IMG/VR virus record: IMGVR_UViG_3300028591_000110
Location: 1-64,000 of that record
Source of the DNA: a virus
Lineage: Duplodnaviria; Caudoviricetes
Reading direction: 5' to 3' (one strand)
Length of the DNA: 64,000 nucleotides
Position numbers and translations under genes: made by a program. The notes beneath the pieces were generated by a model. It was not told the DNA's origin. It made no database searches and worked only from the letters and a program-made list of their open reading frames with translations. Shown here piece by piece: positions 1 through 23,339 of the stretch; within the stretch, counting starts at the first letter, position 1, and the number at the start of each line of letters is the position of its first letter.

Positions 1-221
1 CAGATGGACAGGTGCAGCGTGGGCCGGACGCCGACCTTGCGGAAGCCCTCTGTGACCTCACTGTAATACAGGCGAGCCTCCAGCTTTCTGCCGTCCGGCA
101 GGGGGATGTATTTGCTGATCTCCTTTTCACCGCGCATGAGGAAGCGGTTCAGGTCGAAGCGGAAGCCGTTGGAGCATTTCGCGTTCCATTTCGTGATCTG
201 TTCTCTCGTGATTTTCGGCAT
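1..221 (-). CDS. Hypothetical protein, truncated by window edge (MPKITREQITKWNAKCSNGFRFDLNRF...)
   Basis: ATG at 221 on the minus strand with a GAAAGGAG RBS. Open to position 1 and downstream of promoter-motif copy 1. Confidence 0.7.
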   Translation of the reverse strand, partial: MPKITREQITKWNAKCSNGFRFDLNRFLMRGEKEISKYIPLPDGRKLEARLYYSEVTEGFRKVGVRPTLHLSI

Positions 222-301
222 GGTGATTTCTCCTTTCAGGCGTTTGTGTTATATAAACAGAAAAAATCCGCCCGGTGCTAACCAGGCGGAGAAATATTTT
301 T

Positions 302-793
302 TCAGAGCTTGCTGTACCATTCCGGCTCGATCATGAGATAACCGTCCGGGTGATCCACGTCCGCGTAGAACGACAGCACGCAGTCGTCCGTCTTCATCAA
401 TGGCATATGCTGCAATGAATCGTCACACTTATAGATGATGCATTCTTCTCCGGAAATGGTTCTTTCCAATGCAGAGACGTAGATAACGCAGCGCGTGACA
501 GATCCGTTCGTGATGTACACCGGCAGCTTGTTTTTCATGGCATAGCAGATTCCGACACGCATATGAAACAGGAGCCGGGACTGATTGTAATAATGAATCG
601 CGGCAGCGTGACGCATCCGGCGACAGGTGCGCCAGAATTTTTCCGTGTCGGCCTCTTCCTCCCAGCGGCGGAGAATGTCGTCCAGCGCTTTGGCGTCAGC
701 CATTTCGATCGTGCGATCCTTCAGCTCGTCGAACGTGCCGTTCGGATCAAGCTGCTGCATCCAGTCCAGAACGTGGTTCAGTGTGAGTTTCAT
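302..793 (-). CDS. Hypothetical protein (163 aa)
   Basis: AGGAGGTG RBS, directly downstream of motif copy 2. Confidence 0.8.
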   Translation of the reverse strand: MKLTLNHVLDWMQQLDPNGTFDELKDRTIEMADAKALDDILRRWEEEADTEKFWRTCRRMRHAAAIHYYNQSRLLFHMRVGICYAMKNKLPVYITNGSVTRCVIYVSALERTISGEECIIYKCDDSLQHMPLMKTDDCVLSFYADVDHPDGYLMIEPEWYSKL

Positions 794-859
794 GTGTTTG
801 CACCTCCTGTTATAACTACAGAGAAAATCCCCGGCTTGCTAACCGGGGATTTGATTTTC

Positions 860-1195
860 TTATTTCGCTTTGATTCCGGTCTGCGAAGTATCGAACGCAA
901 CCTTCTCCCATCCCATTGTGTCGCAGAAATAGCATCCCGGCAAAATTGTGTTGCTGCCGTCATCCAGAATTTCCACGACATCGGAAACGGAAAGAGAATG
1001 GCCGGTAAAATCCACAGGATGCTTTAGATTGAACATCATGAAGATTCCATCCAGATCGGGCTCGTCTGTTTCACCGCTCCAAACCAGATCGTAGATAGAG
1101 CTGTCAAAATCAGCTTCCTGAAAATGACAGAGCGGCATAAACCTCAGACGATTGACATCCCGCTTGCTGTTGATTTGATAGATACAAATTTTCAT
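860..1195 (-). CDS. YodL-like domain protein
   Basis: Signature YDLVWSGE...LDGIFMMFNLKHPVDFTGHSLSVSDVV matches the YodL family. Confidence 0.8.
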   Translation of the reverse strand: MKICIYQINSKRDVNRLRFMPLCHFQEADFDSSIYDLVWSGETDEPDLDGIFMMFNLKHPVDFTGHSLSVSDVVEILDDGSNTILPGCYFCDTMGWEKVAFDTSQTGIKAK

Positions 1196-1245
1196 TGCGA
1201 TCCCTCCCGCTTTATTTACAGAATGATTTTCACCTTTGCTAACCT

Positions 1246-1560
1246 TCAGGCGGGAATTTCTTTCACCTGATAGCGCTGCGCCAGATACGTCCAGAGCGAC
1301 ATGGATTTATAGCGCCGCCAGTCCTCCGCGAAAGCCATGGCGGAATTTTGGAGCCAGTAGGGAACCGCAAGTTGATCCAGCAGCTCAAACGCGAGCCGGA
1401 TTGATCCGCGCGAGACCTCCGCATCCGGATCGTCCGCGCCGTAGCGTTCCCGGATGTAGGACAAATCCGCCGTCCAGCGGGCGAGATATTCCAGCTCTTT
1501 GATGCGTTTGTGATCCAGCAGGACGGTTATGTGTCCATTGGTGATTTCGTATTGTTTCAT
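1246..1560 (-). CDS. Hypothetical protein (104 aa)
   Basis: AGGAGG RBS before ATG 1560, with a motif copy upstream. Confidence 0.75.
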   Translation of the reverse strand: MKQYEITNGHITVLLDHKRIKELEYLARWTADLSYIRERYGADDPDAEVSRGSIRLAFELLDQLAVPYWLQNSAMAFAEDWRRYKSMSLWTYLAQRYQVKEIPA

Positions 1561-1623
1561 ATTATCGCCTCCTGTAATAATTACAGGAGCTTCTCCGGAT
1601 TTGCTAACCGTTCTGAAAAATAA

Positions 1624-1663
1624 AAAAACCGCCATCCGGCGAGCTTTTGACCCGCCGGATGGC
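1624..1663 (-). terminator. Intrinsic terminator
   Basis: GCCATCCGGCG/CGCCGGATGGC stem followed by a T-run on the minus strand. Confidence 0.75.
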
Positions 1664-1672
1664 GATCCCTGT

Positions 1673-1774
1673 TCATCGGAAGATTTCTTTGTCTACAGCC
1701 TCCATTTCATTCAAGATTTCTTCCGAGCTTGCATTCTTCAGCCATTCGATCATGGCGAGTTCTTCCTCTGTCAT
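1673..1774 (-). CDS. Small acidic peptide (33 aa, MTEEELAMIEWLKNASSEEILNEMEAVDKEIFR)
   Basis: ATGA overlap with the upstream gene, ending just before the terminator. Confidence 0.5.
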   Translation of the reverse strand: MTEEELAMIEWLKNASSEEILNEMEAVDKEIFR

Positions 1775-2145
1775 CGCTTCATCATCTCCTCTGCAAGCTG
1801 ATTCAGGTGTGCTTTATGAATTTTGTCCGTGTACAGGCCGAGCTTCATTGCGGCCTCCTCGTCCCAGGAGCTTTCCACCGTTTTCGCCCACTGCGCAGCG
1901 GCTTTGGAAATGCGTCCGTCCCATGCGGCGTGATTGATAAGCGTGGCGATCAGCGCCTCCGCTTTTTCTTTGCCGACGTCCGCGATATAGGCCTCCACCG
2001 TCTGCGCGGGCGTGTGATCCAGCATCATGTGCTGCATGTAGATCGATTCCAGCCTGTTCAGGTCGAAGCGCAGGTCGTCCCGCATTTTGAAGTAGTCCGC
2101 GCGATCCGCGTCCAGCATGGTTCTGATTTCGTTCATGGTTTTCAT
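1771..2145 (-). CDS. DUF3849-like protein
   Basis: LIATLIN..AWDGRISKAAAQWAK...HKAHLNQL resembles DUF3849. AGGAGG RBS. Confidence 0.6.
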   Translation of the reverse strand: MKTMNEIRTMLDADRADYFKMRDDLRFDLNRLESIYMQHMMLDHTPAQTVEAYIADVGKEKAEALIATLINHAAWDGRISKAAAQWAKTVESSWDEEAAMKLGLYTDKIHKAHLNQLAEEMMKR

Positions 2146-2200
2146 ATGATCGCCTCCTGTTATATCTTCAGAAAAGAATCCGTGTTTGCTAACCGGAAAT

Positions 2201-2449
2201 TTATTTTACATATTCAATTTCTTCCTGCCAGCAGATTTCATCGTTTCCGCGCGGCCCGTGCCAAACAGTCTGTTTTTTATATTCTTCCGCAACCTGCATG
2301 GCCTCCGCTTCAGATTTTACGAAACGTCCGATTCCGCAATAGTACCAGCGTGTTTTATCGAAGCTCGTCCAGACTGTTACATTGTGTGTAAATCCGTCAA
2401 CCGGAAAATCCACTTTGTAGATTATGATTTTTCTGAAGAACACCTTCAT
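2201..2449 (-). CDS. Hypothetical protein (82 aa)
   Basis: GGAGG RBS, same operon as 2464-3237. Confidence 0.7.
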   Translation of the reverse strand: MKVFFRKIIIYKVDFPVDGFTHNVTVWTSFDKTRWYYCGIGRFVKSEAEAMQVAEEYKKQTVWHGPRGNDEICWQEEIEYVK

Positions 2450-2463
2450 TTTTCCGCCTCCGT

Positions 2464-3237
2464 TTAATACCAGTCGTTTTCCATGGCGTCGCGCAGGAAC
2501 TGTTTCCGCGCGTCCCGGTAGGCGCGGCGGCGTTCTGCGCTGAAGGAGAGCTTGTCAAAATAGTCGTCCAGACCGGCAGAGTCGCCCAGCCATGGAACGT
2601 CCCCGAAAACGGACAGCACGTCCCAGTCGCCTTGAGCGTTGATGTGATACTCGTGGTTCCCCATCTCGTAGTAAAAGGCGCTTTTCCAGTAATCGTAGTC
2701 GTCCGCAATCTTCATCTTTGCAGCCTGCAGACGGGAGAAAAGCTCTTTATGATGCTCTACAAAATCCTCGTCCAGCGGGTCGTAAAAGGCGAAGCAGACG
2801 GGATTATAGATTTTTCCCGCTACAGACTTTTGATAGGCCTCCTCCTCGGCGTCGTTGTGCGTGATGCAGAATGCGGAAACATAATCCTCCTGCATTCCGT
2901 AATAGTTTGTAAGATAGCCTGATTTTCTCCGGTATTCGTCGTATGTTTTGATCGGCTCCGCGATCTCCGCCTCTGTGAAGAGCTTGTTTTCCAGCGTCCG
3001 CAGATACCAGTCGCGCAGCTCCTCGCGCGTCTTTCCGGCGTGATGCAGCTCGTAGTCGTTCGCGTGGTAGATGTGATGCGCGTTTTTGTAAACCAGAGCG
3101 CTGTAACCGAAATAGCCTCCGAAGTCCACCAGATATACCGTGTGATCCTTGATCGTGAGCGTTTCCAGCGCCATCGCGGCGGCCTCCGCCTCCGTGAGCG
3201 CCTCGATCATATGAATGTCAAAATTTTTCTGTTCCAT
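2464..3237 (-). CDS. Hypothetical protein (257 aa, acidic/aromatic, YEMGNHEY motif)
   Basis: Long ORF with a GAAAGGA RBS and a motif copy upstream. Confidence 0.85.
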   Translation of the reverse strand: MEQKNFDIHMIEALTEAEAAAMALETLTIKDHTVYLVDFGGYFGYSALVYKNAHHIYHANDYELHHAGKTREELRDWYLRTLENKLFTEAEIAEPIKTYDEYRRKSGYLTNYYGMQEDYVSAFCITHNDAEEEAYQKSVAGKIYNPVCFAFYDPLDEDFVEHHKELFSRLQAAKMKIADDYDYWKSAFYYEMGNHEYHINAQGDWDVLSVFGDVPWLGDSAGLDDYFDKLSFSAERRRAYRDARKQFLRDAMENDWY

Positions 3238-3351
3238 GGTTCCGTTCCTTTCCGGCTTGCGCCTGTTCTGTTATATCTACAGAAAGAATCCGTGTTTTGC
3301 TAACCGGTAAAAAAATAAAATAATCCGGGGACGGTGATCCGTCCCCGTGAT

Positions 3352-3519
3352 TCATCCGGCCAGTTTTTCCATGACCATGAAAATGTTCAGAGCGCTGTAA
3401 ACCGGGTCGGAGCCCAGGTTTTTGCATACGACCTCCAGAATGCTCAGCATCCACCATCCGCCGGACAGAATGCCGGCGATTTCCATGACGCTTATGCGCT
3501 TGCGCGTGTTCTTTTTCAT
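3352..3519 (-). CDS. Small putative membrane protein
   Basis: GGAGGT RBS, hydrophobic stretch, followed by a terminator at about 3310-3347. Confidence 0.6.
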   Translation of the reverse strand: MKKNTRKRISVMEIAGILSGGWWMLSILEVVCKNLGSDPVYSALNIFMVMEKLAG

Positions 3520-3686
3520 CAGATTTTGACCTCCGTTCCCGTGATGGTATAGGGCGTGCGGCTCGATCCATAATGCGCCGCGTCCTGCCGCTGGATATAC
3601 CAGCGGCTCGCGACGATCCATGACAGGACGGCCAGCGCCATCAGCAGCGCTGCCGTCCGGCGTTCCGTTTGCTTGCGTTTTTCCAT
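3519..3686 (-). CDS. Small putative membrane protein
   Basis: GGAGG RBS and hydrophobic AALLMALAVLSWIVA. Confidence 0.6.
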   Translation of the reverse strand: MEKRKQTERRTAALLMALAVLSWIVASRWYIQRQDAAHYGSSRTPYTITGTEVKI

Positions 3687-3688
3687 GT

Positions 3689-3982
3689 TCATCCCTCCGT
3701 GATCCATGTCCGGCTGTTGATATATTCGCAGACGTGCTCCGGGTAGCCGTTTTCCCGGACGTAGGCGCAGAGCTCGCGCTTTACGTCATCCTCCGTGCCG
3801 CTGTCCATCGCGCGGGTGATCCGCACGGCGTTTTCTCCGGCGCATCCGTCGATATAGCGGGCAACGTCACTGTAAAACTTTTCCGGTTTGTAGCGAATCT
3901 CCGACAACGTAAATCCGAATCCAAATCCGTTCGGAGCCATGTCGTCGTAAAACTTGCGATCCAGTATGCAATCAATAATCAT
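3689..3982 (-). CDS. Hypothetical protein (97 aa)
   Basis: GGAGG RBS, motif copy upstream. Confidence 0.75.
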   Translation of the reverse strand: MIIDCILDRKFYDDMAPNGFGFGFTLSEIRYKPEKFYSDVARYIDGCAGENAVRITRAMDSGTEDDVKRELCAYVRENGYPEHVCEYINSRTWITEG

Positions 3983-4065
3983 GGTGTTTTCCTCCGTGAA
4001 TTTTTTCCGGGATTGTGCTCCCGTCTATCTATCAGAACGTTTCCGGCGTTTGCTAACCAGTCTTT

Positions 4066-4467
4066 TTAATGGCCGAATTTTTCCATCAGAGCACGTTCGA
4101 TCCATTCATCGAACGACGTGTCGTCCGCTTTGCGATCCAGAAATGCGTCCACCGTGACTCCGCAAAACTCTGCAAGCCTGTTTTCGTCGTCCAGTGTTCC
4201 GCCGATTAAAATTTCTCCGGCGGCCTCCATGTGTCCGGCGCGGCTGCCCATCGTGACCAGCAGGTTATCCCGCAGCGGGCGATCCTGAAAACCGCCAATC
4301 ATCCGAATTGCCTCATCCGCCGAGATCATTTCCTTCTCCCGGTAATAAACCGCCAAATCGCACTGCCGCATTATTTCCATTTTCTGATCCGGCGTCAGCT
4401 TGTCGTCCGCCTCGATTGTGTCCATCCGCGCGTTTGCGTATTTGATAATGTACTGTTCCGTTTTCAT
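4066..4467 (-). CDS. Hypothetical protein (133 aa, acidic)
   Basis: GGAGGT RBS, motif copy upstream. Confidence 0.75.
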   Translation of the reverse strand: MKTEQYIIKYANARMDTIEADDKLTPDQKMEIMRQCDLAVYYREKEMISADEAIRMIGGFQDRPLRDNLLVTMGSRAGHMEAAGEILIGGTLDDENRLAEFCGVTVDAFLDRKADDTSFDEWIERALMEKFGH

Positions 4468-4618
4468 CCGAAATGACCTCCATGTTTTGATCCGGGATTG
4501 ATCCCTGTTATATCTTCAGAAGAAAAGTCCATCCTGCTAACCAGAAATTCAAAAAAATTATTCCGCAAAACAAAAAAACCGCCCGCCGGTTATCCGACGG
4601 GCGCGTCTGTTCCATTTT

Positions 4619-4909
4619 TCAGTCCATGAACGGCTCCTGCCGGGCGAGAATGCGGCCTTCCCAATAAAGCGCCTCCTCGTCGCTGTTCCGGCGCTGTTCC
4701 GGTTTTGACGGGCTGAAATTTTCCAGCCTGTACCCGTCCGGATCGTCCGCGAGCCAGACGATGCCGCTCTCCGCGCGGATATCCAGAAAACGCGGATTCC
4801 GGCCTTTGTCTTTGCCGACGGCCATCAGCCATGCGTAAATCGCTTCCACGTCCAGTCCGGACTCAGCGGCCAGTTTTTCCGCGAGCCCATAAACGTCCTT
4901 GCGTATCAT
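4619..4909 (-). CDS. Hypothetical protein (96 aa)
   Basis: GGAGG RBS, motif upstream, terminator at about 4572-4604 downstream. Confidence 0.75.
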   Translation of the reverse strand: MIRKDVYGLAEKLAAESGLDVEAIYAWLMAVGKDKGRNPRFLDIRAESGIVWLADDPDGYRLENFSPSKPEQRRNSDEEALYWEGRILARQEPFMD

Positions 4910-4984
4910 CGTGTTCCCTCCGTTCCGTTGTTCTGTTATATTTACAGAAGTTTTTCCGGATTTGCTAACCTGTTCCGGAATTTT

Positions 4985-5353
4985 TTATTCCTGCCGGTCG
5001 TGGATACAGAGCGGATAATACGTTCCGGTCTCCGCTCTGAATCGTGAGTCGCTCGTGTGCGCCAGATTCCCGCCGAACATCCACCATCCGGGACGGGCAA
5101 CGACAGCGCCGTTTTCGTCCACCGTGGCCGGGATGATTCGCGCGTGATCCTCCGTCACACCATAGACGAATCCGGACAGGTTGCGGTGTTCCACCATGCA
5201 GAAATTTTCCGGGATGCCGTCATCCGTATCGACCGTGATGTGTCCGTCCGGGCAGGCTACCAGCAGCTCGTTGAACCGGCTGGAGATTCCGCCGTTCGTG
5301 GCGTCCCATTTTCCATGGCGGTAAACGTCTACCGGCAAAGCTTTGATTTTCAT
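4985..5353 (-). CDS. Hypothetical phage protein (122 aa, MFGGN..TSDSRF motif)
   Basis: GGAGG RBS, motif copy upstream. Confidence 0.8.
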   Translation of the reverse strand: MKIKALPVDVYRHGKWDATNGGISSRFNELLVACPDGHITVDTDDGIPENFCMVEHRNLSGFVYGVTEDHARIIPATVDENGAVVARPGWWMFGGNLAHTSDSRFRAETGTYYPLCIHDRQE

Positions 5354-5497
5354 AGGTGATTCCCTCCATGATTGATTTTGTTCCGGGTTTTGTTCCCGTT
5401 ATATCTTCAGAAAGAATTTGATCCGTGCTAACCAGGAAAATAAAAAATCCGGCGGGCATTTTTCAGCCCGCCGTGATCCGTTCCGCGCCTCCCTCCG

Positions 5498-5683
5498 TTA
5501 TGCTGTCAGCGCTCGCCGCTGTGTCCAGCAGCGCACCTCCCGGACACAATAGACCTCCAGAATCATATGTCCGGCAGCGCGTACTTTCTTGACTGCATCC
5601 GTTATGGAATACGCCTTGACATATTCCGTCTTCAGGTAGTTTCCGCGCCCGTAAAACTGTACACAATAGGTTTGACGTTCCAT
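5498..5683 (-). CDS. Hypothetical protein (61 aa)
   Basis: GAGGAGG RBS, terminator at about 5442-5473. Confidence 0.65.
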   Translation of the reverse strand: MERQTYCVQFYGRGNYLKTEYVKAYSITDAVKKVRAAGHMILEVYCVREVRCWTQRRALTA

Positions 5684-5695
5684 GTTCGATCCTCC

Positions 5696-5980
5696 TCACT
5701 GATCCACGGAAGCAAAGCCCTGCTGACGCTCGGCCTCGTCCACCGCGTCATAAAACTTGTCGATCAAGCCGTCCGCCGTCCATTGCTCGCGCTGCACCTG
5801 CACGGCCTCCACCGTCCGGCGGGCGATCCGTCCGCGATTGCCGGACGCCTCCGCACGGCACACCGCGTCGCGTGCCTCCAGAATTTTGCGGCTCCGGTTC
5901 CCGTAGAACATCAGCAGCGCCTTTTCGAGTATGTCCTGCTCCTGCGCGTCGAGCGTCATCGTGATCGTGATTTTTTCCAT
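5696..5980 (-). CDS. Hypothetical protein (94 aa)
   Basis: GGAGGT RBS, motif copy upstream. Confidence 0.7.
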   Translation of the reverse strand: MEKITITMTLDAQEQDILEKALLMFYGNRSRKILEARDAVCRAEASGNRGRIARRTVEAVQVQREQWTADGLIDKFYDAVDEAERQQGFASVDQ

Positions 5981-6100
5981 GGTTCAAACCTCCATTGTTT
6001 TCTGTTCCGGGATTCCTCCCGGTTATATATCAGAAGTTTTTCCGTTCCTGCTAACCAGAAAATAAAAAAATCGCCGGGGATCTCTCCCCGGCGTGATTCC

Positions 6101-6232
6101 TCAATTCATCCAGTCCAGCGCCTCCGCGCCGTCGTCCAGATCGCCGCAGTACATGTCCGCAAAGCTCGTAAAGCCTCCGGATATCTCGTCCAGCGCCTCG
6201 CGCAGCTCGTAGCTGTCAAAGTAATCAAACAT
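6101..6232 (-). CDS. Very acidic 43-aa peptide (MFDYFDSYELREALDEISGGFTSFADMYCGDLDDGAEALDWMN)
   Basis: GAGGAGGT RBS, followed by a terminator at about 6064-6093. Below the ORF-track cutoff. Confidence 0.65.
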   Translation of the reverse strand: MFDYFDSYELREALDEISGGFTSFADMYCGDLDDGAEALDWMN

Positions 6233-6245
6233 GATTCAAACCTCC

Positions 6246-6443
6246 TCAAAGATACGGGTTGCCGATCGTGCACGGCTCCTCGTGCAGCGCCTCGCGCGTC
6301 GTGACCTTCCTGATCTCCGGCTGCTCGCCGTATTCCTCCGCGACCTCTGCGGCCAGCGCCCGCGCGGCCTTCAGGCCGTAGCATCCGCCGACGCCGTTCC
6401 AGCGCCCGGCATTGTCGAAACCGACGTTGTAAAAGTTTTTCAT
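6246..6443 (-). CDS. Hypothetical protein (65 aa)
   Basis: GGAGGT RBS before ATG 6443, motif copy upstream. Confidence 0.65.
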   Translation of the reverse strand: MKNFYNVGFDNAGRWNGVGGCYGLKAARALAAEVAEEYGEQPEIRKVTTREALHEEPCTIGNPYL

Positions 6444-6582
6444 GTGATGACCTCCCGTCATTCGTTCCGGCTGCCGTGGCCGCCGTTCTGTTATATCTAC
6501 AGGCAAAATGTGTTCTGTGCTAACCATGCCAGCAAAAAAAATTGCCCGGCGGGAAAAACCTGCCGGGCGTGTTCCGCGCTCC

Positions 6583-6942
6583 TCAAATAAAGTACATTTC
6601 CCCATTGACTTCCAGGGCGACGGCCTCCTGCTGCATGGAGCGCTTGAGCTCCTCGCAGTGATCGACGACCGCGCCGATGTGCTGCTGGAGATCGCTGTCG
6701 CTCGCGTAGGCGAAAACAACCGTGGTATTTTCGGCGACAAGGCCGGCAGCGGGGGAGAGCCAATAGCCGAGCGCGGGCGTGCTCGTGGCGCCGCCGAAAA
6801 GCCTGGACAGCAGCGCCGCCGTGCTCTTGACCTGTTCCGTGTTATCCGTGGCCGTGTCAACGCCGGACGTGGCCGGGACGTAAACCGTAACTTTACTGGA
6901 AAGCTTGATGCAAGCTTTCAGCCGTGCATTATTGATCGTCAT
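6583..6942 (-). CDS. Hypothetical protein, DUF3574/PII-like fold possible
   Basis: FGGAT...GYW...LVAE...QQEAVALE pattern and AGGAGGT RBS. Confidence 0.6.
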   Translation of the reverse strand: MTINNARLKACIKLSSKVTVYVPATSGVDTATDNTEQVKSTAALLSRLFGGATSTPALGYWLSPAAGLVAENTTVVFAYASDSDLQQHIGAVVDHCEELKRSMQQEAVALEVNGEMYFI

Positions 6943-7059
6943 GGTGTTTGACCTCCTGTCATGAGATGAGGCGCGAGCGGGACGGCCCGCGCCCGGTTCC
7001 GGTTATATATCAGAAGAAAATCCCGGCTTGCTAACCATGCCCGCCGGGATTTTTTCAGG

Positions 7060-7866
7060 TCAGGCCGCGAGCGCGTCAGCAACGGCCTTTTTCATTTTCG
7101 CGATTCGCTTGTGCACGGCGACGTTAGAAATCCCGACATACTGCGCGATCTCGCGTTCCGTCAGGCCGAGCCGGTTATAACTCCAGATCCGGCGGCCTGT
7201 CAGGTCAAACCGGGAAATGACCTGCTCCACAATCACGCGGGCGATGGCGCTCGATTCGGTATTGTCCCGGCGAGCGCTTGCCATGGTCTCGACATAGCTG
7301 TAAGTGTCGCCGTCAGCGTCGACGATCTCGCGGACGCAAGCACGACCGTGCTTGATATCGGCGTAATAGATCGCCGCGATGCTCGCGTGCGCGGAGTCGT
7401 AAACGAGCTTTTGCAGGGACAGCGGACGTTTACCGGAGGCCGCGCGCTTTTCGTTGACTCGCGCGAGCTTTGCGGGATCGGCGAGCTTGCCCGCAATGCG
7501 GAGCCACGTCTCATTTACAAACTCGTCAAACTCATGGCCGTGCAGCGCGAACGCAGGGACTTCAGTAAACTGAAGATAATGGTCTTCGGTCGAATAGCCG
7601 ATATCATTCTTCGCGGCCTTGCGAACGCAAGCCGTCATGAAGCGCATCTGTGCGGCAGTGTCGAGCGCAGCCCATTCAGCCGCGAGCGCGTCAGCATTTG
7701 CGGCGGCATACGGCGCTTCAGCTTCAGCCCACGCGAGCCGGAGGCATTCGCCCCAAATGACAGCGGACACGCTGCAGCCCATATCGGCAGCAGCAGCGCG
7801 ACGGATCGCCCACGCGCGGCGCATGATGGCGGAAAGATCGTACTTGTGGTTGATGGTGTTTTTCAT
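7060..7866 (-). CDS. Phage sigma-70/ECF-like sigma factor
   Basis: Region-2-like FDEFVNETWLRI and C-terminal region-4 HTH GLTEREIAQYVGISNVAVHKRIAKM. Confidence 0.75.
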   Translation of the reverse strand: MKNTINHKYDLSAIMRRAWAIRRAAAADMGCSVSAVIWGECLRLAWAEAEAPYAAANADALAAEWAALDTAAQMRFMTACVRKAAKNDIGYSTEDHYLQFTEVPAFALHGHEFDEFVNETWLRIAGKLADPAKLARVNEKRAASGKRPLSLQKLVYDSAHASIAAIYYADIKHGRACVREIVDADGDTYSYVETMASARRDNTESSAIARVIVEQVISRFDLTGRRIWSYNRLGLTEREIAQYVGISNVAVHKRIAKMKKAVADALAA

Positions 7867-7896
7867 GGTGACAGCTCCTTAAATTAGATAGTCTAC

Positions 7897-8090
7897 AATG
7901 ACGCGCTATGCGAGCAGCAGCGCAGCGGATGGAACCACGCCCGGCAGCCCGCACGGGCAGCCCTGTATCTAATGGTATTGTACCATATATGCGGCCAAAT
8001 GGCAAGCCTCTAATGACGCGCTTTAGATATCGGATCTGTAGAAAAACCAGGATCTATTTTGTGCAATATGCTAGATACTAATGACGCGCT
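7897..8090. repeat. Three direct repeats AATGACGCGCT flanking the sigma-gene promoter
   Basis: Exact copies at 7897-7907, 8012-8022 and 8080-8090. Confidence 0.8.
7977..8005 (-). promoter_or_regulatory. Sigma-A promoter for the sigma-like gene
   Basis: TTGCCA-17 bp-TACAAT with extended TG on the minus strand. Confidence 0.75.
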
Positions 8091-8099
8091 ATCAGAGCG

Positions 8100-8760
8100 C
8101 AGCAGAGGCCGCAGGACGCACGGCAGCAGAGCAGGAGCAGAGACAGAGGAAGAGGAGCAGGACAGCAGCAGAGCGCAAGCAGAGACGCGAGGAGCGCAGC
8201 AGGACGGCAGCAGCGCGGGCACGGCCTCGCCGGAGCCGGGAACCACCTGCACGACCTGCACGGCAGCCCGCACGGCCTCGCCTACGGCAGCGCAGCCGGA
8301 GACCGCCGCACGGCCTCGCCCACCATGCCCGGCAGCCCTGCGCGATCTGCGCGAGCACCTGCACCGCAGCAGCCCGGCACGGAATCCCGGCAGCCCTGCG
8401 CAGCGCCTACGGCAGCTGGAGCAGCCCGCGAGGAGTAAAGCAGAGAAAGCAGGGACGGACGGAAGGAAGGACGGGAAGGAGAAGACCGGACGCGCAACAG
8501 GCCGCCTGTAGCATCAGCAGCAGCCCGCCGCGCTCGCTTGCGAGCCCTTCACGCCCTGCGCGGCCTTGACGACCGCAGCAGCGCCGCAGAGACGCGAAAA
8601 CGCCCGGAAAAGCAATTCTGCACTTTGAGAGATTGCAGAACAGGCCGCCCGCGCGTTGATATCCGGCCATTTTTTCACGCTCCAGAGACCCGGGGAGCCT
8701 CCACATTTTGGCCGGCGACTAGCCAAAAAAATTTTGGCTCAGTACCTTCATCCCCACACC
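8100..8760. repeat. Low-complexity, purine-skewed repeat region at the strand switch
   Basis: CACGGCCTCGCC x3 (about 8220, 8271, 8309), CCCGGCAGCCCTGCGC x2 and GCAGCAG runs. Overlapping ORFs look spurious. Confidence 0.65.
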
Positions 8761-8870
8761 ATCCTCTTTTTCAGCCTTCCCGTCGATCATCGCCTTTCAG
8801 CTATTCGCAAAGCCAATCAACCGCAAAACGATCTTCAACGAAATAGCAAAACACAAAAACACCAAACAAA

Positions 8871-8904
8871 AGTTAGCAAAAACACATAATAATCTGATAT
8901 ATCC
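8871..8904 (+). promoter_or_regulatory. Rightward variant of the phage promoter motif (AGTTAGCA-N14-TCTG-ATA-TATCC)
   Basis: Same boxes and 14-bp spacing as the 13 leftward copies, pointing toward the recombinase. Confidence 0.6.
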
Positions 8905-8969
8905 CACCTGGTCTTACTGAAGATCAACGAGATATTCAGCGATTTTACCAAATAATATCAACATTTCTA

Positions 8970-8998
8970 TTGACAAATCACCATCCATACTATATAAT
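8970..8998 (+). promoter_or_regulatory. Consensus sigma-A promoter for the recombinase
   Basis: Perfect TTGACA-17 bp-TATAAT. Confidence 0.85.
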
Positions 8999-9064
8999 AA
9001 AGAGTGTGCAGAAGCACGTTTTTCATTGCATAAAGCAAAACACTAAAGACTGGAGGACTGCCCG

Positions 9065-9913
9065 ATGGACGAGCAAATCTGCCTTTTTGAAGAACCCATG
9101 CAGCCAGCAGCGCCGGAGCAGAAGGACGGGATCTTGATCCAATTCCCACTGGCTCAGGAAGACTCGAACGTAGTACATCTACCGGGAGTCTCCAAGAAGA
9201 AGGACAAGAGAACCCATAAGAAAGAATGGAAAACCAAAGACAATTTCATCAACAACGCCAGAGCCGGCCAGGAGCAGACGGTCTACGCCATCAAGTCTAT
9301 GGAAGACCGCAAGCGGATGGCAGCTTGGCTATTAGAGAACAAAGACCGGAAATACTTCCTGGCCTTTACGCTTGGCATCAACCTTGGGCTGAGAGCGAAT
9401 GAGCTGCTACAGCTTCGTCAATGCGACGTCTTCAACCCTGACGGATCTTTCCGATACAACGGAGGAGATTTAACAGACACGTCTGACAGGGTAATGGTAG
9501 ATCAGAGCAAGACCCATAAGAGACGCAGACTCTACCTGAACGAAGCATGCATCAACGCCCTTAGCTGGTATTTCCCCGTAAAGGGATCTCAGAACTACAG
9601 CCAAGCCTATCTGTTTAAGAGCAGAGAAGGAGGACACATTGAAGTTGGTACGTTCTGCAAGGTCTTAAAGGAAGCTGCTGCCGCATGTGGGATCAAGCTC
9701 AATGTTGGTACGCACACCCTGAGAAAGACATACGGATACGAACACTTCAAAAGAAACCATGATGTGGTTTATCTCCAGCAGCTCTTTGGTCATTCCAGTC
9801 CTCTGATCACCATGCGATACATTGGTGTTACGGAAGAAGATGAGAAAGCTGCTTTCCATGCAATGTCTATGGACTTCCTGAAGATGTTGAATGAGGAAGA
9901 GACGGGGGATTGA
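9065..9913 (+). CDS. Tyrosine recombinase (integrase/XerC family, catalytic domain intact)
   Basis: GLRANE (R), HTLRK (HxxR), FGHSS (H) and RYIG (Y). GGAGG RBS. Confidence 0.92.
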   Translation: MDEQICLFEEPMQPAAPEQKDGILIQFPLAQEDSNVVHLPGVSKKKDKRTHKKEWKTKDNFINNARAGQEQTVYAIKSMEDRKRMAAWLLENKDRKYFLAFTLGINLGLRANELLQLRQCDVFNPDGSFRYNGGDLTDTSDRVMVDQSKTHKRRRLYLNEACINALSWYFPVKGSQNYSQAYLFKSREGGHIEVGTFCKVLKEAAAACGIKLNVGTHTLRKTYGYEHFKRNHDVVYLQQLFGHSSPLITMRYIGVTEEDEKAAFHAMSMDFLKMLNEEETGD

Positions 9914-20195: not shown

Positions 20196-20550
20196 AGAAA
20201 GAAGAAAAAACGCAAAGAAAGAAGCAGCGCTGAAAAAGCTATATGCCAATCTTTGGAAAAATCTGCGGGAGATGAATCTGGAGGAACTTGTAAAGGCGGC
20301 TGCGGAAGACGACGCGCTGAAGGACGGAGACCGCGTGAAGCTGGATCTGCAGCGGATTCAGGGCAGACAGGACTATCGGCGCATGCAGCGCGAGTATAAA
20401 ATCTTTGTTGAGACGCACAAGGACGATATTTTTACGGTGAAGCTGCTTCAGAATGAGCGTTATCCGGCGATCGTGACATTCTATGAGGATGACACTTGGC
20501 ATTTTTGGAGCGGCGATCTGAAAAGGATGCGGACGGAGGGATCGGAATAA
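20185..20550 (+). CDS. Hypothetical protein (MNREERR start)
   Basis: ORF track, operon context. Confidence 0.7.
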   Translation: MNREERRKNAKKEAALKKLYANLWKNLREMNLEELVKAAAEDDALKDGDRVKLDLQRIQGRQDYRRMQREYKIFVETHKDDIFTVKLLQNERYPAIVTFYEDDTWHFWSGDLKRMRTEGSE

Positions 20551-23339
20551 CGAATCGGTCAGTATGCATTGTGTCGGCGGACGCGAAGGATTTGTATTTG
20601 GCCTGCTATTCCGCGCCTTCCAGCACGGAATACAGCGTTCTATATCGCAAGGGTCAGAACGCCGGCGAGATCAACACAAGACGGTTTATCAACACACTGG
20701 ATTACAGTCTTGATCTGATCAAGCTGAGAGAAGTCTATGAAAAGGTGTACCGGCGTCTTGATTTCTCCTTTGAAAAGAGAGGCAGAGAGTATTGCAAAAG
20801 TGTCATCAATGTCACTTTCAAGTACAGTGTCAAGGAATACAACCTGTTTCACGACAAGACGTATGTCAAGCTCGGCTATGTGCCGGCGGATGTGGAGCTG
20901 CACGATAATATCTGCGTGAAAAACGGAGAACTGATTGCGATCCGCGTGGAGAATCCGGTCGAGGCTCCCGTTTCTGCGGATATTCTCGGGAAATACTTTA
21001 CATTTGACGATGGCGAATACCGTCTGAACAAGGCGCTGAAGGTTGTACATACCGTAGCAGATCTGAGAAGGATGCTGTATCAGAACGGATTTGTGTGCGA
21101 CGGCGTGCGATATCGACGCTTCAAGCGTTCCAGCGGCAGCAGCCGCGTCGGAAAGTGTCTCTTTATCGATGATCGCCTGTATGACCGGATGCATAAATGG
21201 GAAATGTGCGGGCTGAAAGTAAAGGAAGGGCAGGAAGTGGATCTTGCTGCCCTGGAAGCCTATATTGCTCTGACGCTGAGCAGCATTATCGGGACGATTC
21301 CGCTTCGGCCTGAAAACTTCCTTGTGATCGACGACTTCGAAAGTGTATTTCAGGATCGTGCGGTTGTATCTCGCATCGGAGACGACGGCTGGCTGGAGTC
21401 CAAGCCGGAGGATGTAGAGGTGAAAAACAGTATTTGGGACGGTCAGTCTCTGATCGACAAGTCTGCGATGGGAGAGTATCAGGATTTCGGTATGATCCTG
21501 CTGCGCAACCGCTTCTTCAAGTCTGCCTGCTTCAACACCAACATTCAGCAGTTTTTCGCGGATCACGGTATCACGGACATTTCGCAGCTCAACGGGTTCA
21601 CGCTCGCGGAAAAGCTGGAAGACGTTCTGATCATCACGACGCCGAGCAGCATCAAGTACCAGAAATTCGGCAGTCTTGAAACGTGGCTGCGGATGCTGGA
21701 TGAAGACGGCGAGTTCGGTATTGTGAAGCACGAGAAGAAAACACACTTTTTCGATGGCCGCATGGTCATGACGCATTATCAGTTGCTGAATACGCTGCAG
21801 ATGACGCAGGAAGAGGTAGACGAGTTCGTGAAGCCTTCACTGGATTATCTGCGCATGATTCACACAGATCCGGCTGTTTTAAGGTATCATATCAAGTTCT
21901 CCGGCTATGGTGAGCCGATCAACCCGGCGCAGTCCGCAAACGAGGTTGTATATCAAATGCTCGGGATCACGGACAAGTTCTTCTACACGAAGCTGTGCGA
22001 CGATTTCAAGCATGATGTGGTCAAGTCCTTCAAGAAGGCGCTGAGCCACGGGCATATCCTCGTAAACGGAAACTATTCAACCTTGCTTGGCAACCCGATT
22101 GAGATGCTGTATGCGTCTATCGGGGAGTTTGACGGAGAAAGTCAGATCGGCGTTGGGAATATCTACTGCAAGCGTTTCCCGTTCGGGCAGCGGCTGCTTG
22201 GATCAAGGTCGCCCCACGTCACTGCGGGCAACATTCTATTAACGAATAATGAAGACAACGCGGAGATCTCGAAGTACCTCAATCTCACAAATGAGATTGT
22301 TTGTATCAACAGCATCGGGGAAAACATTCTGATGCGTTTGTCGGGTGCAGATTTTGATTCGGACACGATGCTGCTGACAGACCACCCGTTGTTGATTATG
22401 GCGGCGGAGCGCAACTATCACCGTTTTCTGGTTCCAACCAGCATGGTTGAGGCAAAGAAGGTTGTCAGACATTATACGCGAGATGAGCAGTCTGATCTGG
22501 ATATCAAAACTTCGGTCAACAAGATCGGCGAGATCGTGAATCTGAGTCAGGAACTGAACACGATGATGTGGGATCGCATGAACAATGGCGAGCAGTTTGA
22601 AGATGTGGAGGAGCTTTATTGCGACATCGCGAAGCTGGATGTGCTCAGCGGCATTGAAATTGACAAGGCCAAGAAGGAGTTTGCGGTCAACAGCGTCGGA
22701 GAAATCAAGAGACTAAAGAAAAAATACAGCGCACTGGATGAGACCGGGCGACAAGTGAAACCGAATTTCTTTGGAAAGATCGCCAGAGGGAAGGGGTATT
22801 ACGACAGTAAGCGCAAAAACTATCAATTTCACGACACGACGATGGATTATTTGCAGCACACGCTGAATGCCTATCGCGCCGGCAAGGCCAAAGATGGCGT
22901 CATTCCGTTCTCGGATCTTCTCATTTCTTCGGATGATGTAAGCGCACACCGGGTTTGGCTGCCGCAGGTCAGCAGAATCATCGGATTGGTTCGCAACATG
23001 AGATCGCAAATTCAGGCGGTATGGAACAATACGGATGACGGTCTTGACAATGAGACGAAGACTGTTATCACAGCGGAGATCCGTGAGAACTGCTACAGTT
23101 ATATCAAGTCCATTCAGATCAGCAAGTCCACGGCATACCGTCTGTTGCTTGAGATTGAGGCGGCTGAAAACAAGGATATCGGAAGAAGTCTGTTCTACAC
23201 GCTGTTCTCGCTGCCGAACGAAAGTTTCTTGCGATTGATTGAGGCGCAAAGAGAGGATATCCCTGTCATTGAGGAAGTGCATGGTGATGATTATGACCTG
23301 CAGATTTACTCGTTCAAGTTCAGCAAAATTGCATCATAA
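20547..23339 (+). CDS. YonO-like single-subunit DNA-dependent RNA polymerase (eukaryotic RdRP-related double-psi fold)
   Basis: RSSGSSRVGK, WDGQSL, RSPH and catalytic GADFDSD. About 930 aa. Start uncertain (ATA 20547 after GGAGG, or TTG 20496). Confidence 0.85.
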   Translation: MTNRSVCIVSADAKDLYLACYSAPSSTEYSVLYRKGQNAGEINTRRFINTLDYSLDLIKLREVYEKVYRRLDFSFEKRGREYCKSVINVTFKYSVKEYNLFHDKTYVKLGYVPADVELHDNICVKNGELIAIRVENPVEAPVSADILGKYFTFDDGEYRLNKALKVVHTVADLRRMLYQNGFVCDGVRYRRFKRSSGSSRVGKCLFIDDRLYDRMHKWEMCGLKVKEGQEVDLAALEAYIALTLSSIIGTIPLRPENFLVIDDFESVFQDRAVVSRIGDDGWLESKPEDVEVKNSIWDGQSLIDKSAMGEYQDFGMILLRNRFFKSACFNTNIQQFFADHGITDISQLNGFTLAEKLEDVLIITTPSSIKYQKFGSLETWLRMLDEDGEFGIVKHEKKTHFFDGRMVMTHYQLLNTLQMTQEEVDEFVKPSLDYLRMIHTDPAVLRYHIKFSGYGEPINPAQSANEVVYQMLGITDKFFYTKLCDDFKHDVVKSFKKALSHGHILVNGNYSTLLGNPIEMLYASIGEFDGESQIGVGNIYCKRFPFGQRLLGSRSPHVTAGNILLTNNEDNAEISKYLNLTNEIVCINSIGENILMRLSGADFDSDTMLLTDHPLLIMAAERNYHRFLVPTSMVEAKKVVRHYTRDEQSDLDIKTSVNKIGEIVNLSQELNTMMWDRMNNGEQFEDVEELYCDIAKLDVLSGIEIDKAKKEFAVNSVGEIKRLKKKYSALDETGRQVKPNFFGKIARGKGYYDSKRKNYQFHDTTMDYLQHTLNAYRAGKAKDGVIPFSDLLISSDDVSAHRVWLPQVSRIIGLVRNMRSQIQAVWNNTDDGLDNETKTVITAEIRENCYSYIKSIQISKSTAYRLLLEIEAAENKDIGRSLFYTLFSLPNESFLRLIEAQREDIPVIEEVHGDDYDLQIYSFKFSKIAS

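Follow-up and report, generated by a model that had tools for sequence, protein, structure and literature searches.

In a 64,000-nt stretch of viral DNA (positions 1 to 64,000 of IMG/VR record IMGVR_UViG_3300028591_000110, referred to here as the window), we analyzed an array of small genes on the minus strand that begins directly 3′ of a gene encoding a sigma-like protein and in which one promoter-like motif recurs at the head of each unit. The DNA belongs to a temperate phage of gut Oscillospiraceae. We consider it likely that the locus constitutes a phage-private circuit, in which an extracytoplasmic function (ECF)-like sigma factor of the phage's own drives a shuffling array of 26 accessory units. 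The first-pass annotation of this locus had described 13 motif copies, each ahead of one to three small genes; all 13 were found, on the minus strand, but they represent only the part of a 26-unit array that falls within the window.

The motif copies share a strict geometry. The exact pattern GGTTAGCA-N14-YCTG-N3-4-TATAA gave 10 minus-strand matches in the window, compared with 0.00 expected from 100 shuffles. When the 3′ part of the pattern was relaxed, all 13 window copies were recovered, every one of them on the minus strand, with the first G of the box at positions 7036, 6525, 6056, 5433, 4970, 4542, 4058, 3305, 2194, 1609, 1244, 844, and 283. A position-weight scan of the whole genome yielded 13 more minus-strand copies past position 1, out to genome position 122209, together with two weak intragenic look-alikes (115099 and 106432). 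The complete array thus comprises 26 good co-oriented copies in approximately 20.2 kb of a single strand, with the consensus GGTTAGCA-N15-CTG-N3/4-TATAAC. The distance from the box to CTG is invariant, being 15 nt in 26 of 26 copies, and CTG and TATAAC are separated by 4 nt except in two copies, where 3 nt lie between them. Each copy is located upstream of one to three open reading frames (ORFs) bearing Shine-Dalgarno sites. A literature search with the box sequence returned unrelated primers only. Good sigma-A-type promoters were restricted to two within positions 1-9200, those of the sigma gene and of a neighboring recombinase gene, while other consensus matches occurred at chance level. As the motifs contain no sigma-A-type hexamer pair and the matches within the array are at chance level, the cassettes have no host-type promoter of their own.

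In 9 of the 26 copies, the promoter-like motif is fused to a strong hairpin (-14.6 to -22.5 kcal/mol) whose loop is the box itself and whose 3′ arm and T-run form the spacer. In most of the remaining copies, a strong hairpin stands apart from the motif, directly upstream of it. Many copies serve also as the terminator of the preceding cassette. Terminators had been proposed at the ends of several units, and terminator-like hairpins are indeed present at 1624-1670, 3326-3347, 4580-4603, 5450-5473, and 6072-6093, with a sixth seen by eye at about 6545-6575.

The position of the ribosome-binding sites constrains where transcripts may start. AGGAGG begins exactly 10 nt after CTG, abutting TATAAC, in 11 of the 26 copies. 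Of 398 distinct copies from relatives, 124 have a ribosome-binding site that begins 10-12 nt beyond the CTG-equivalent and only 3 have one nearer to it, although this +10 limit may partly reflect the fact that the motif itself occupies those bases. With ribosome-binding sites located within 0-2 nt of TATAAC, the transcription start must lie in or at TATAAC. If TATAAC were taken as a canonical -10 element (-12 to -7), about one third of the copies would give transcripts that begin within or beyond their own ribosome-binding site, and we rejected this assignment. Starts had earlier been expected a few nt beyond TATAA; for the same reason, TATAA is probably not a canonical -10 element. We infer from the sequence that CTG is the better -10 candidate, that the AT-rich run is the melted region, and that transcription starts at or beside the C of TATAAC.

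The gene at the head of the array (7060..7866, minus strand) encodes a protein of 268 aa with an N-terminal Gp111-like helical domain, a sigma-2-like domain, a beta-hairpin linker, and a sigma-4 domain. Sigma factors were the top Foldseek matches of its AlphaFold2 model (predicted local distance difference test score, 77). The sigma-4 domain (residues 202-268) aligned with the DNA-bound region 4 of sigmaE (2h27; Z 10.3, root-mean-square deviation 2.3, 67 of 71 residues) and with region 4 of SigD (3vfz; Z 10.5, root-mean-square deviation 1.5), and residues 55-268 aligned to whole sigmaE and AlgU with Z of 9-10.5. When the middle domain (residues 50-200) was folded alone and compared with 48,161 chains without a prefilter, sigma-2 domains made up about 16 of the top 20 matches, at Z of 5.1 or below; these matches include pro-sigmaK, sigmaE region 2, SigK, SigB, SigH, SigI, sigma-70, SigR, and SigC. 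The segment FDEFVNETWLR is one that we take to resemble the ECF region 2.1/2.2 motif, and one homologue carries the JGI label sigma-24 family protein. On the basis of these models, we read the head protein as a very diverged two-domain ECF-like sigma factor that carries an additional Gp111-like domain at its N terminus; the assignment of the middle domain to sigma-2 is tentative. The initial description of the head gene as sigma-like stands, with a clear sigma-4 fold, a weak but consistent sigma-2 domain, and sigma factors as the best structural matches.

A protein with a sigma-4-like helix-turn-helix could alternatively be an activator that binds GGTTAGCA near -40 and recruits the host sigma-A holoenzyme to a weak TATAA(C/T). 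Indeed, the AT-rich element is a good TATAAT in several lineages (types B and E), and counting TATAAC as -12 to -7 would put the box at -42 to -35, where class II activators typically bind; in addition, the protein falls short of the curated sigma models and its helix-turn-helix is also Lrp/AsnC-like. We nevertheless regard an activator as unlikely. A canonical TATAAC -10 puts starts inside or after the ribosome-binding site in about a third of the copies, it is the spacing between box and CTG that is invariant rather than that between box and TATAAC, and the middle domain is best matched by sigma-2 domains in a protein that aligns as a whole to sigmaE and AlgU.

The sigma gene itself is preceded by a host sigma-A-type promoter, TTGCCA-17-TGgTACAAT with a TG extension (7977..8005, minus strand), identified by consensus scan. 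This promoter had been predicted in the first-pass annotation, and we found it to be the only host-type promoter of that strand within positions 1-9200. Of the 16 relatives tested, 13 have a comparable sigma-A-type promoter, located 117-186 nt ahead of the sigma gene. The promoter is bracketed by three 18-bp direct repeats with the core AATGACGCGCT on the plus strand (at 7890, 8005, and 8073; span 7890..8090). Relatives have different, lineage-specific repeats at the same place, such as four copies of GCAACAAAGAAAA in L003 and three copies of a 23-mer in L019. The 18-bp repeats are candidate repressor operators, likely acting in immunity. Fast-evolving repeats at the sigma promoter, combined with a conserved box, would be expected if immunity acts at the sigma promoter and not at the box. 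In two relatives (L017:9810 and L020:9801), one motif copy also precedes the sigma gene itself by about 200 nt, which suggests positive autoregulation in those lineages.

The box might instead be an operator resembling the SPBRE of phage SPbeta, at which a recombinase-fold protein or another repressor silences early promoters in the lysogen, the promoters then being read by another polymerase. SPbeta provides a precedent, as ten of its early promoters have a repeated element bound by MrpR (PMC10516654), and a tyrosine recombinase is encoded divergently from the head of the array in every relative examined. We give this explanation little weight. The recombinase retains its catalytic R, HxxR, H, and Y residues and matches integrase families, whereas MrpR has lost crucial ones, and the integrated prophages of the family need an integrase in any case; both facts argue against the recombinase as the box binder. 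So does the distribution of variation, since conservation of the box extends across lineages but each lineage has repeats of its own at the sigma promoter, as is usual for immunity operators. Moreover, the box is a single asymmetric 8-mer in fixed register with the rest of the promoter, and there is no alternative -35 element for the host polymerase.

We assessed the linkage between sigma gene and motif in relatives of the phage. The sigma-like protein has 294 homologues, many of them on contigs of 125-140 kb; the loci compared were 39 viral, 13 genomic, and 1 metagenomic (a metagenome scan yielded this one distant relative), with 35-57% sigma identity, the closest homologues (83-90% identity) lying outside the fetched set. 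Wherever the flank and a full-length sigma match sufficed, a co-oriented array was present directly 3′ of the sigma gene, down to 35% identity. The arrays of relatives have a GT(T/A)AGCA box and a second element exactly 15 nt later, which differs by lineage (TCTGTAATTATAGTAG; CTGTAATAAnAATAG; TTCTCatGTAT; GGGTAGATATAAT; GGGTAGTTAA). The box is nearly invariant and the sigma-4 recognition helix, AVHKRI, is invariant; in the single GTAAGCA lineage, SNV gives way to NRA where this helix begins. CTG, CTC, and GGG occur as variants of the -10 region, and the GGG lineages have common changes in the putative sigma-2 helix.

The window also encodes a 930-aa RNA-polymerase-like protein (20547-23339) with a strong match to phrog_8308, and the motif could be the promoter of this single-subunit, YonO-like enzyme, in which case the sigma-like protein would do something else. 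The protein does match an RdRP/YonO-type PHROG, albeit weakly, and the promoter sequence of YonO itself is unknown (PMC5467207). However, the 176-kb human-gut phage MT835469.1 (L042) encodes an RNA-polymerase-like protein with 48% identity over 99% of its length, and thus provides a natural control: a profile search of that genome (E up to 10) revealed no sigma homologue, and an array is likewise absent, the two motif sites present being at chance level. Conversely, two phages of the family (G003 and G005) have kept both sigma gene and array with an RNA-polymerase-like protein of 23-25% identity. The motif thus follows the sigma gene and not the gene of the RNA-polymerase-like protein, and a bipartite -35/-10 arrangement at fixed spacing is typical of sigma-dependent promoters. 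A YonO-like reader of the motif is, in our judgment, quite improbable.

The motif copies are also sites of change between related arrays. Nine closely related arrays are mosaics of blocks with 93-99% identity, and 69 of 190 homology breakpoints among them fall within 66-bp motif windows, compared with 18 expected, although the count includes events common to several genomes, which were counted repeatedly, and the motif windows coincide with gene boundaries, so that the statistic cannot separate the two. In a deletion that distinguishes L003 and L008, two motif copies are joined, and the 29 bp by which they overlap correspond to the motif itself. Among the array genes other than the first, 34 of 48 have no homologue in 50 related loci, and the common ones differ in order. 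The idea that the repeated motif provides homology for gain, loss, and shuffling of cassettes, put forward when the locus was first annotated, is therefore supported in relatives by the breakpoints and the L003/L008 deletion, and the comparison of cassette order suggested at that time revealed shared genes in different orders.

Such turnover could in principle be site-specific. In the broader form of this idea, recombinase, sigma gene, and array would form a cassette platform in which the promoter/terminator module is also the recombinase target, combining integron-like capture, excision, and reordering of cassettes with private, sigma-dependent expression; we assign this a slim chance. The resemblance of the box GTTAGCA to the integron core GTTRRRY would speak for recombination at the motif. 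That the motif or its hairpin form is a recombination site for the XerC/D-like recombinase, which would be compatible with a promoter role, we hold to be most improbable despite the integron-like layout (divergent tyrosine recombinase, co-oriented array, hairpin-forming repeats), sub-threshold integron-integrase matches, and breakpoints at the motif, because strong hairpins occur in only 9 of 26 copies and have terminator-like T-runs and loops of 5-8 nt unlike attC, the order GGTT...AACC is the reverse of that in attC (AAC...GTT), integrated prophages in the family need an integrase anyway, and homologous exchange, as in the promoter early stem-loops (PeSLs) of T4-type phages, explains the breakpoints equally well.

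The motif with its statistics and spacing, the fold of the head protein, the synteny, the co-occurrence of motif and sigma gene, and the turnover of cassettes are all observed; from these we infer which protein binds core polymerase and reads the motif, where transcripts start, when the array is expressed, and what its cassettes do. Upon infection or induction, host sigma-A RNA polymerase would transcribe the leftward sigma gene from its own promoter, access to which is probably controlled by lineage-specific operators. The ECF-like sigma factor, together with host core polymerase, would then recognize a bipartite promoter consisting of GGTTAGCA as the -35 element, 15 nt of spacer, a CTG-centered -10 element, and the AT-rich melting/start region TAGATATAAC. 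Each of the 26 promoters would serve one to three small accessory genes, with an intrinsic terminator insulating every unit. Because all units have about 45 bp of identical regulatory sequence in common, recombination between copies would add, drop, and reorder cassettes and so give rise to a hyperplastic region. A two-step cascade, in which host RNA polymerase would make the phage sigma factor and the sigma factor would fire the array, had been postulated previously, and every computational test available to us supports it.

Besides the two limits on the breakpoint statistic, several results weigh against this proposal. The head protein reached no curated sigma-factor hidden Markov model cut-off in Pfam or NCBIfam: its match to Pfam Sigma70_r4_2 had an E-value of 1e-3 and 19.0 bits, against a cut-off of 25.7, and that to NCBIfam TIGR02937 (sigma70-ECF) an E-value of 2e-3 and 17.9 bits, against a cut-off of 42.9. 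A profile search of PDB with the sigma alignment retrieved Lrp/AsnC-type helix-turn-helix proteins only, and these weakly (E of about 0.005). The structural match to sigma-2 is weak (Z no higher than 5.1), and a Foldseek search with only the middle domain returned noise. The co-variation of sigma factor and promoter represents one or two independent lineage events, and is consistent with the model without being proof of it. MT835469 could simply have switched promoter specificity. Finally, the recombinase is as universally linked to the array as the sigma factor is, so that co-occurrence alone cannot name the protein that binds the box.

The 13 units in the window, all on the minus strand, are described here in the direction of transcription, the genes named being those that each copy would drive. 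Copy 1 (7003..7036), whose box occupies the loop of a hairpin (-21.7 kcal/mol) able to terminate the sigma transcript, is followed by the cassette 1 gene (6583..6942; 119 aa), which matches phrog_3543 and no named family. Copy 2 (6491..6525), with its separate terminator hairpin upstream (~6545-6575), is followed by ORFs 6246-6443 and 6106-6273. Copy 3 (6023..6056), in which CTG and TATAAC are separated by 3 nt (CTG-N3-TATAAC), lies behind the terminator at 6072-6093 and ahead of 5696-5980 and 5498-5683; copy 4 (5399..5433) lies behind the terminator at 5450-5473 and ahead of 4985-5353. The box of copy 5 (4936..4970; gene 4619-4909) is within a hairpin loop, and copy 6 (4508..4542; gene 4066-4467) has a terminator upstream at 4580-4603. 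Copy 7 (4024..4058), which is degenerate in its 3′ part (ATAGATAGAC), precedes 3689-3982, 3519-3686, and one more small ORF, whose bounds are uncertain because the called frame (3218-3427) would cross a terminator and the next promoter box. Copy 8 (3271..3305), with a terminator upstream at 3326-3347, precedes 2464-3237 and 2201-2449. In copy 9 (2160..2194), AGGAGG abuts TATAAC, and a DUF3849 gene (1771-2145) and a further ORF (1673-1774) follow, up to the terminator at 1624-1670. Copy 10 (1575..1609), which has CCTG and TATTAC, precedes 1246-1560, and copy 11 (1210..1244), again with a degenerate 3′ part, precedes a YodL-like gene (860-1195). In copy 12 (810..844; gene 302-793) the box occupies a hairpin loop (-19 kcal/mol), with a T-run after the hairpin, and in copy 13 (249..283), which precedes an ORF running from 221 across the contig junction, it occupies the loop of a hairpin at 267-290 (-18.6 kcal/mol).

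Searches of Pfam and PHROGs left most cassette proteins without a name. The named cargo consists of YodL, DUF3849, DUF932, and one DarB-like methylase-helicase. The YodL-like and DUF3849-like genes had been recognized in the first reading of the sequence, and both assignments were confirmed (E-values of 5e-24 and 4e-7, respectively). YodL modifies cell shape through an activity linked to MreB and is frequent among the conjugative elements of Firmicutes (PMC5512222). Behind the last promoter lies a 1014-aa fusion of an N6-adenine methylase with an SNF2/ResIII helicase (L040:3551-6595; genome 119114-122158, minus strand), which matches a DarB-like antirestriction PHROG. The other cassette genes are orphans, and a role in host takeover or anti-defence, although plausible, is shown for almost none of the cassettes. 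Only one cassette gene is positionally conserved: the 119-aa gene immediately 3′ of the sigma gene occupies the same place in 46 of the 50 related loci. Its product could be a partner of the sigma factor, such as a co-factor, an anti-sigma factor, or an inhibitor of the host sigma factor; an Atlas look-up of the gene gave no function.

Divergent from the array lies the tyrosine recombinase gene (9065..9913, plus strand), which encodes an XerC/D-like protein of 282 aa and adjoins the sigma gene throughout the phage family. All of the catalytic residues are kept, namely R (in LRANE), HxxR (HTLR), H (in GHSS), and the tyrosine (in RY), and the protein matches integrase families, with integron-integrase models matching below threshold. 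The consensus scan of positions 1-9200 placed a perfect sigma-A promoter, TTGACA-17-TATAAT, upstream of this gene at 8970-8998. A degenerate rightward copy of the motif (AGTTAGCA-N15-CTGATATATCC; 8871..8904, plus strand) lies 100 nt upstream of that promoter; we did not accept it into the system, as an equivalent is absent from the relatives checked. Between the sigma and recombinase genes is a GC-rich repeat stretch (8100-8600) with a 42-bp tandem unit and several families of 11-17-bp repeats. We took this stretch as non-coding by eye; plus-strand ORFs of 150 aa (8059-8511) and 162 aa (8081-8569) are listed there. Similar GC-rich repeats occupy the equivalent position in relatives, and the stretch may be an origin or iteron region.

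The phage contig, of which the window forms the first 64 kb, has 135,563 bp. Bases 1-126 are repeated identically at 135417-135542, and with ends that overlap by 126 identical bases the genome (approximately 135.4 kb) is circular or terminally redundant; the promoter array crosses the contig junction. The genome has 18 tRNA genes, a terminase gene, and very large structural genes on the plus strand. Neither megablast of positions 1-9200 nor tblastn of the sigma protein gave a match in 50,697 phage records, and a literature search on the phage family found no paper. The family takes in integrated prophages, and relatives are present on 160-390-kb contigs of cultured Oscillospiraceae, Dysosmobacter segnis BX15 (L053) and Hominicoprocola fusiformis CLA-AA-H269 (L054). 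As relatives occur in cultured isolates, the circuit is open to experiment.

If our reading is correct, an unannotated sigma family, encoded by cultured Oscillospiraceae lysogens as well as by hundreds of contigs from gut metagenomes, can be paired with a precisely defined promoter. Its natural specificity variants could provide orthogonal expression parts for gut Clostridia as well as a natural experiment in the co-evolution of sigma factors and promoters. By repressing one promoter, a temperate phage could silence a large and fast-changing arsenal. The 26 cassettes described here, together with about 400 in relatives, constitute a pool of candidate host-takeover or anti-defence genes, nearly all of them without known function.

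In its architecture the array matches the PeSLs of T4-type phages, in whose hyperplastic early region dozens of copies of a short composite terminator/promoter motif precede mainly small orphan genes (Arbiol 2010, PMC2839356; Comeau 2014, PMC4122927). The PeSL stem-loop may be upstream of the -35 element, overlap it, or lie between -35 and -10 (PMC2839356), and PeSL copies are points of insertion, deletion, and replacement between relatives (PMC2839356, PMC4122927). The array described here is similar in its composite motif, its small orphan genes, its range of hairpin placements, and the turnover at motif copies, in this case observed in relatives. However, unmodified host polymerase reads the PeSL promoters, which conform to the host sigma-70 consensus, whereas our array lacks host-type -35 and -10 elements and is coupled to a phage-encoded sigma factor. 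Furthermore, the PeSL phages are lytic T4-like myoviruses, while this is a temperate Oscillospiraceae phage with one contiguous, single-strand array. The PeSL principle, by which one regulatory repeat insulates, drives, and shuffles genes, would here operate on a channel owned by the phage.

In phage T4, gp55 is a member of a phage sigma cascade. Phage SPO1 has such a cascade in gp28 and gp33/34 (PMC13401047). The proposed circuit shares with both the principle that host sigma-A polymerase makes a phage sigma factor, which redirects core polymerase to a class of phage promoters. It differs in that the head protein has no detectable sequence relationship to the SPO1 and T4 sigmas and has a two-domain ECF-like layout with an extra N-terminal domain, and in that its regulon apparently is the accessory array only, without replication or structural genes.

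Compared with ECF (group 4) sigma factors, the head protein, if the tentative sigma-2 assignment is correct, has the same combination of sigma-2 and sigma-4 without sigma-3. The sigmaE promoter has a GGAACTT -35 element and a GTC -10 core (PMC6648896), and the motif likewise has a G-rich putative -35 element (GGTTAGCA vs. GGAACTT) and a very short, G/C-containing putative -10 core (CTG vs. GTC). In contrast to ECF sigma factors, the head protein scores below the curated cut-offs, has a Gp111-like N-terminal domain of about 55-100 residues and a beta-hairpin linker, and is encoded by a phage; no anti-sigma partner was identified here.

SPbeta (about 134 kb, with the YonO polymerase) has the 15-bp SPBRE at ten early promoters, bound by MrpR, a recombinase-fold repressor that lacks crucial catalytic residues (PMC10516654). 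SPbeta and our phage are both large temperate phages of Firmicutes with a repeated early-promoter element, a recombinase-fold protein nearby, and a YonO-type gene. The SPBRE, however, is a repressor site at host-type promoters, whereas the element in our phage is the sole promoter-like sequence and the catalytic residues of the recombinase are kept. Integron attC sites are long imperfect palindromes, R''(RYYYAAC)...R'(GTTRRRY), while the hairpins of the array are short, terminator-like, and present in some copies only. Sigma cascades and the PeSL architecture are thus each known; what is new is their combination, a PeSL-like shuffling array under an unannotated, phage-owned, ECF-like sigma factor, throughout a phage family.

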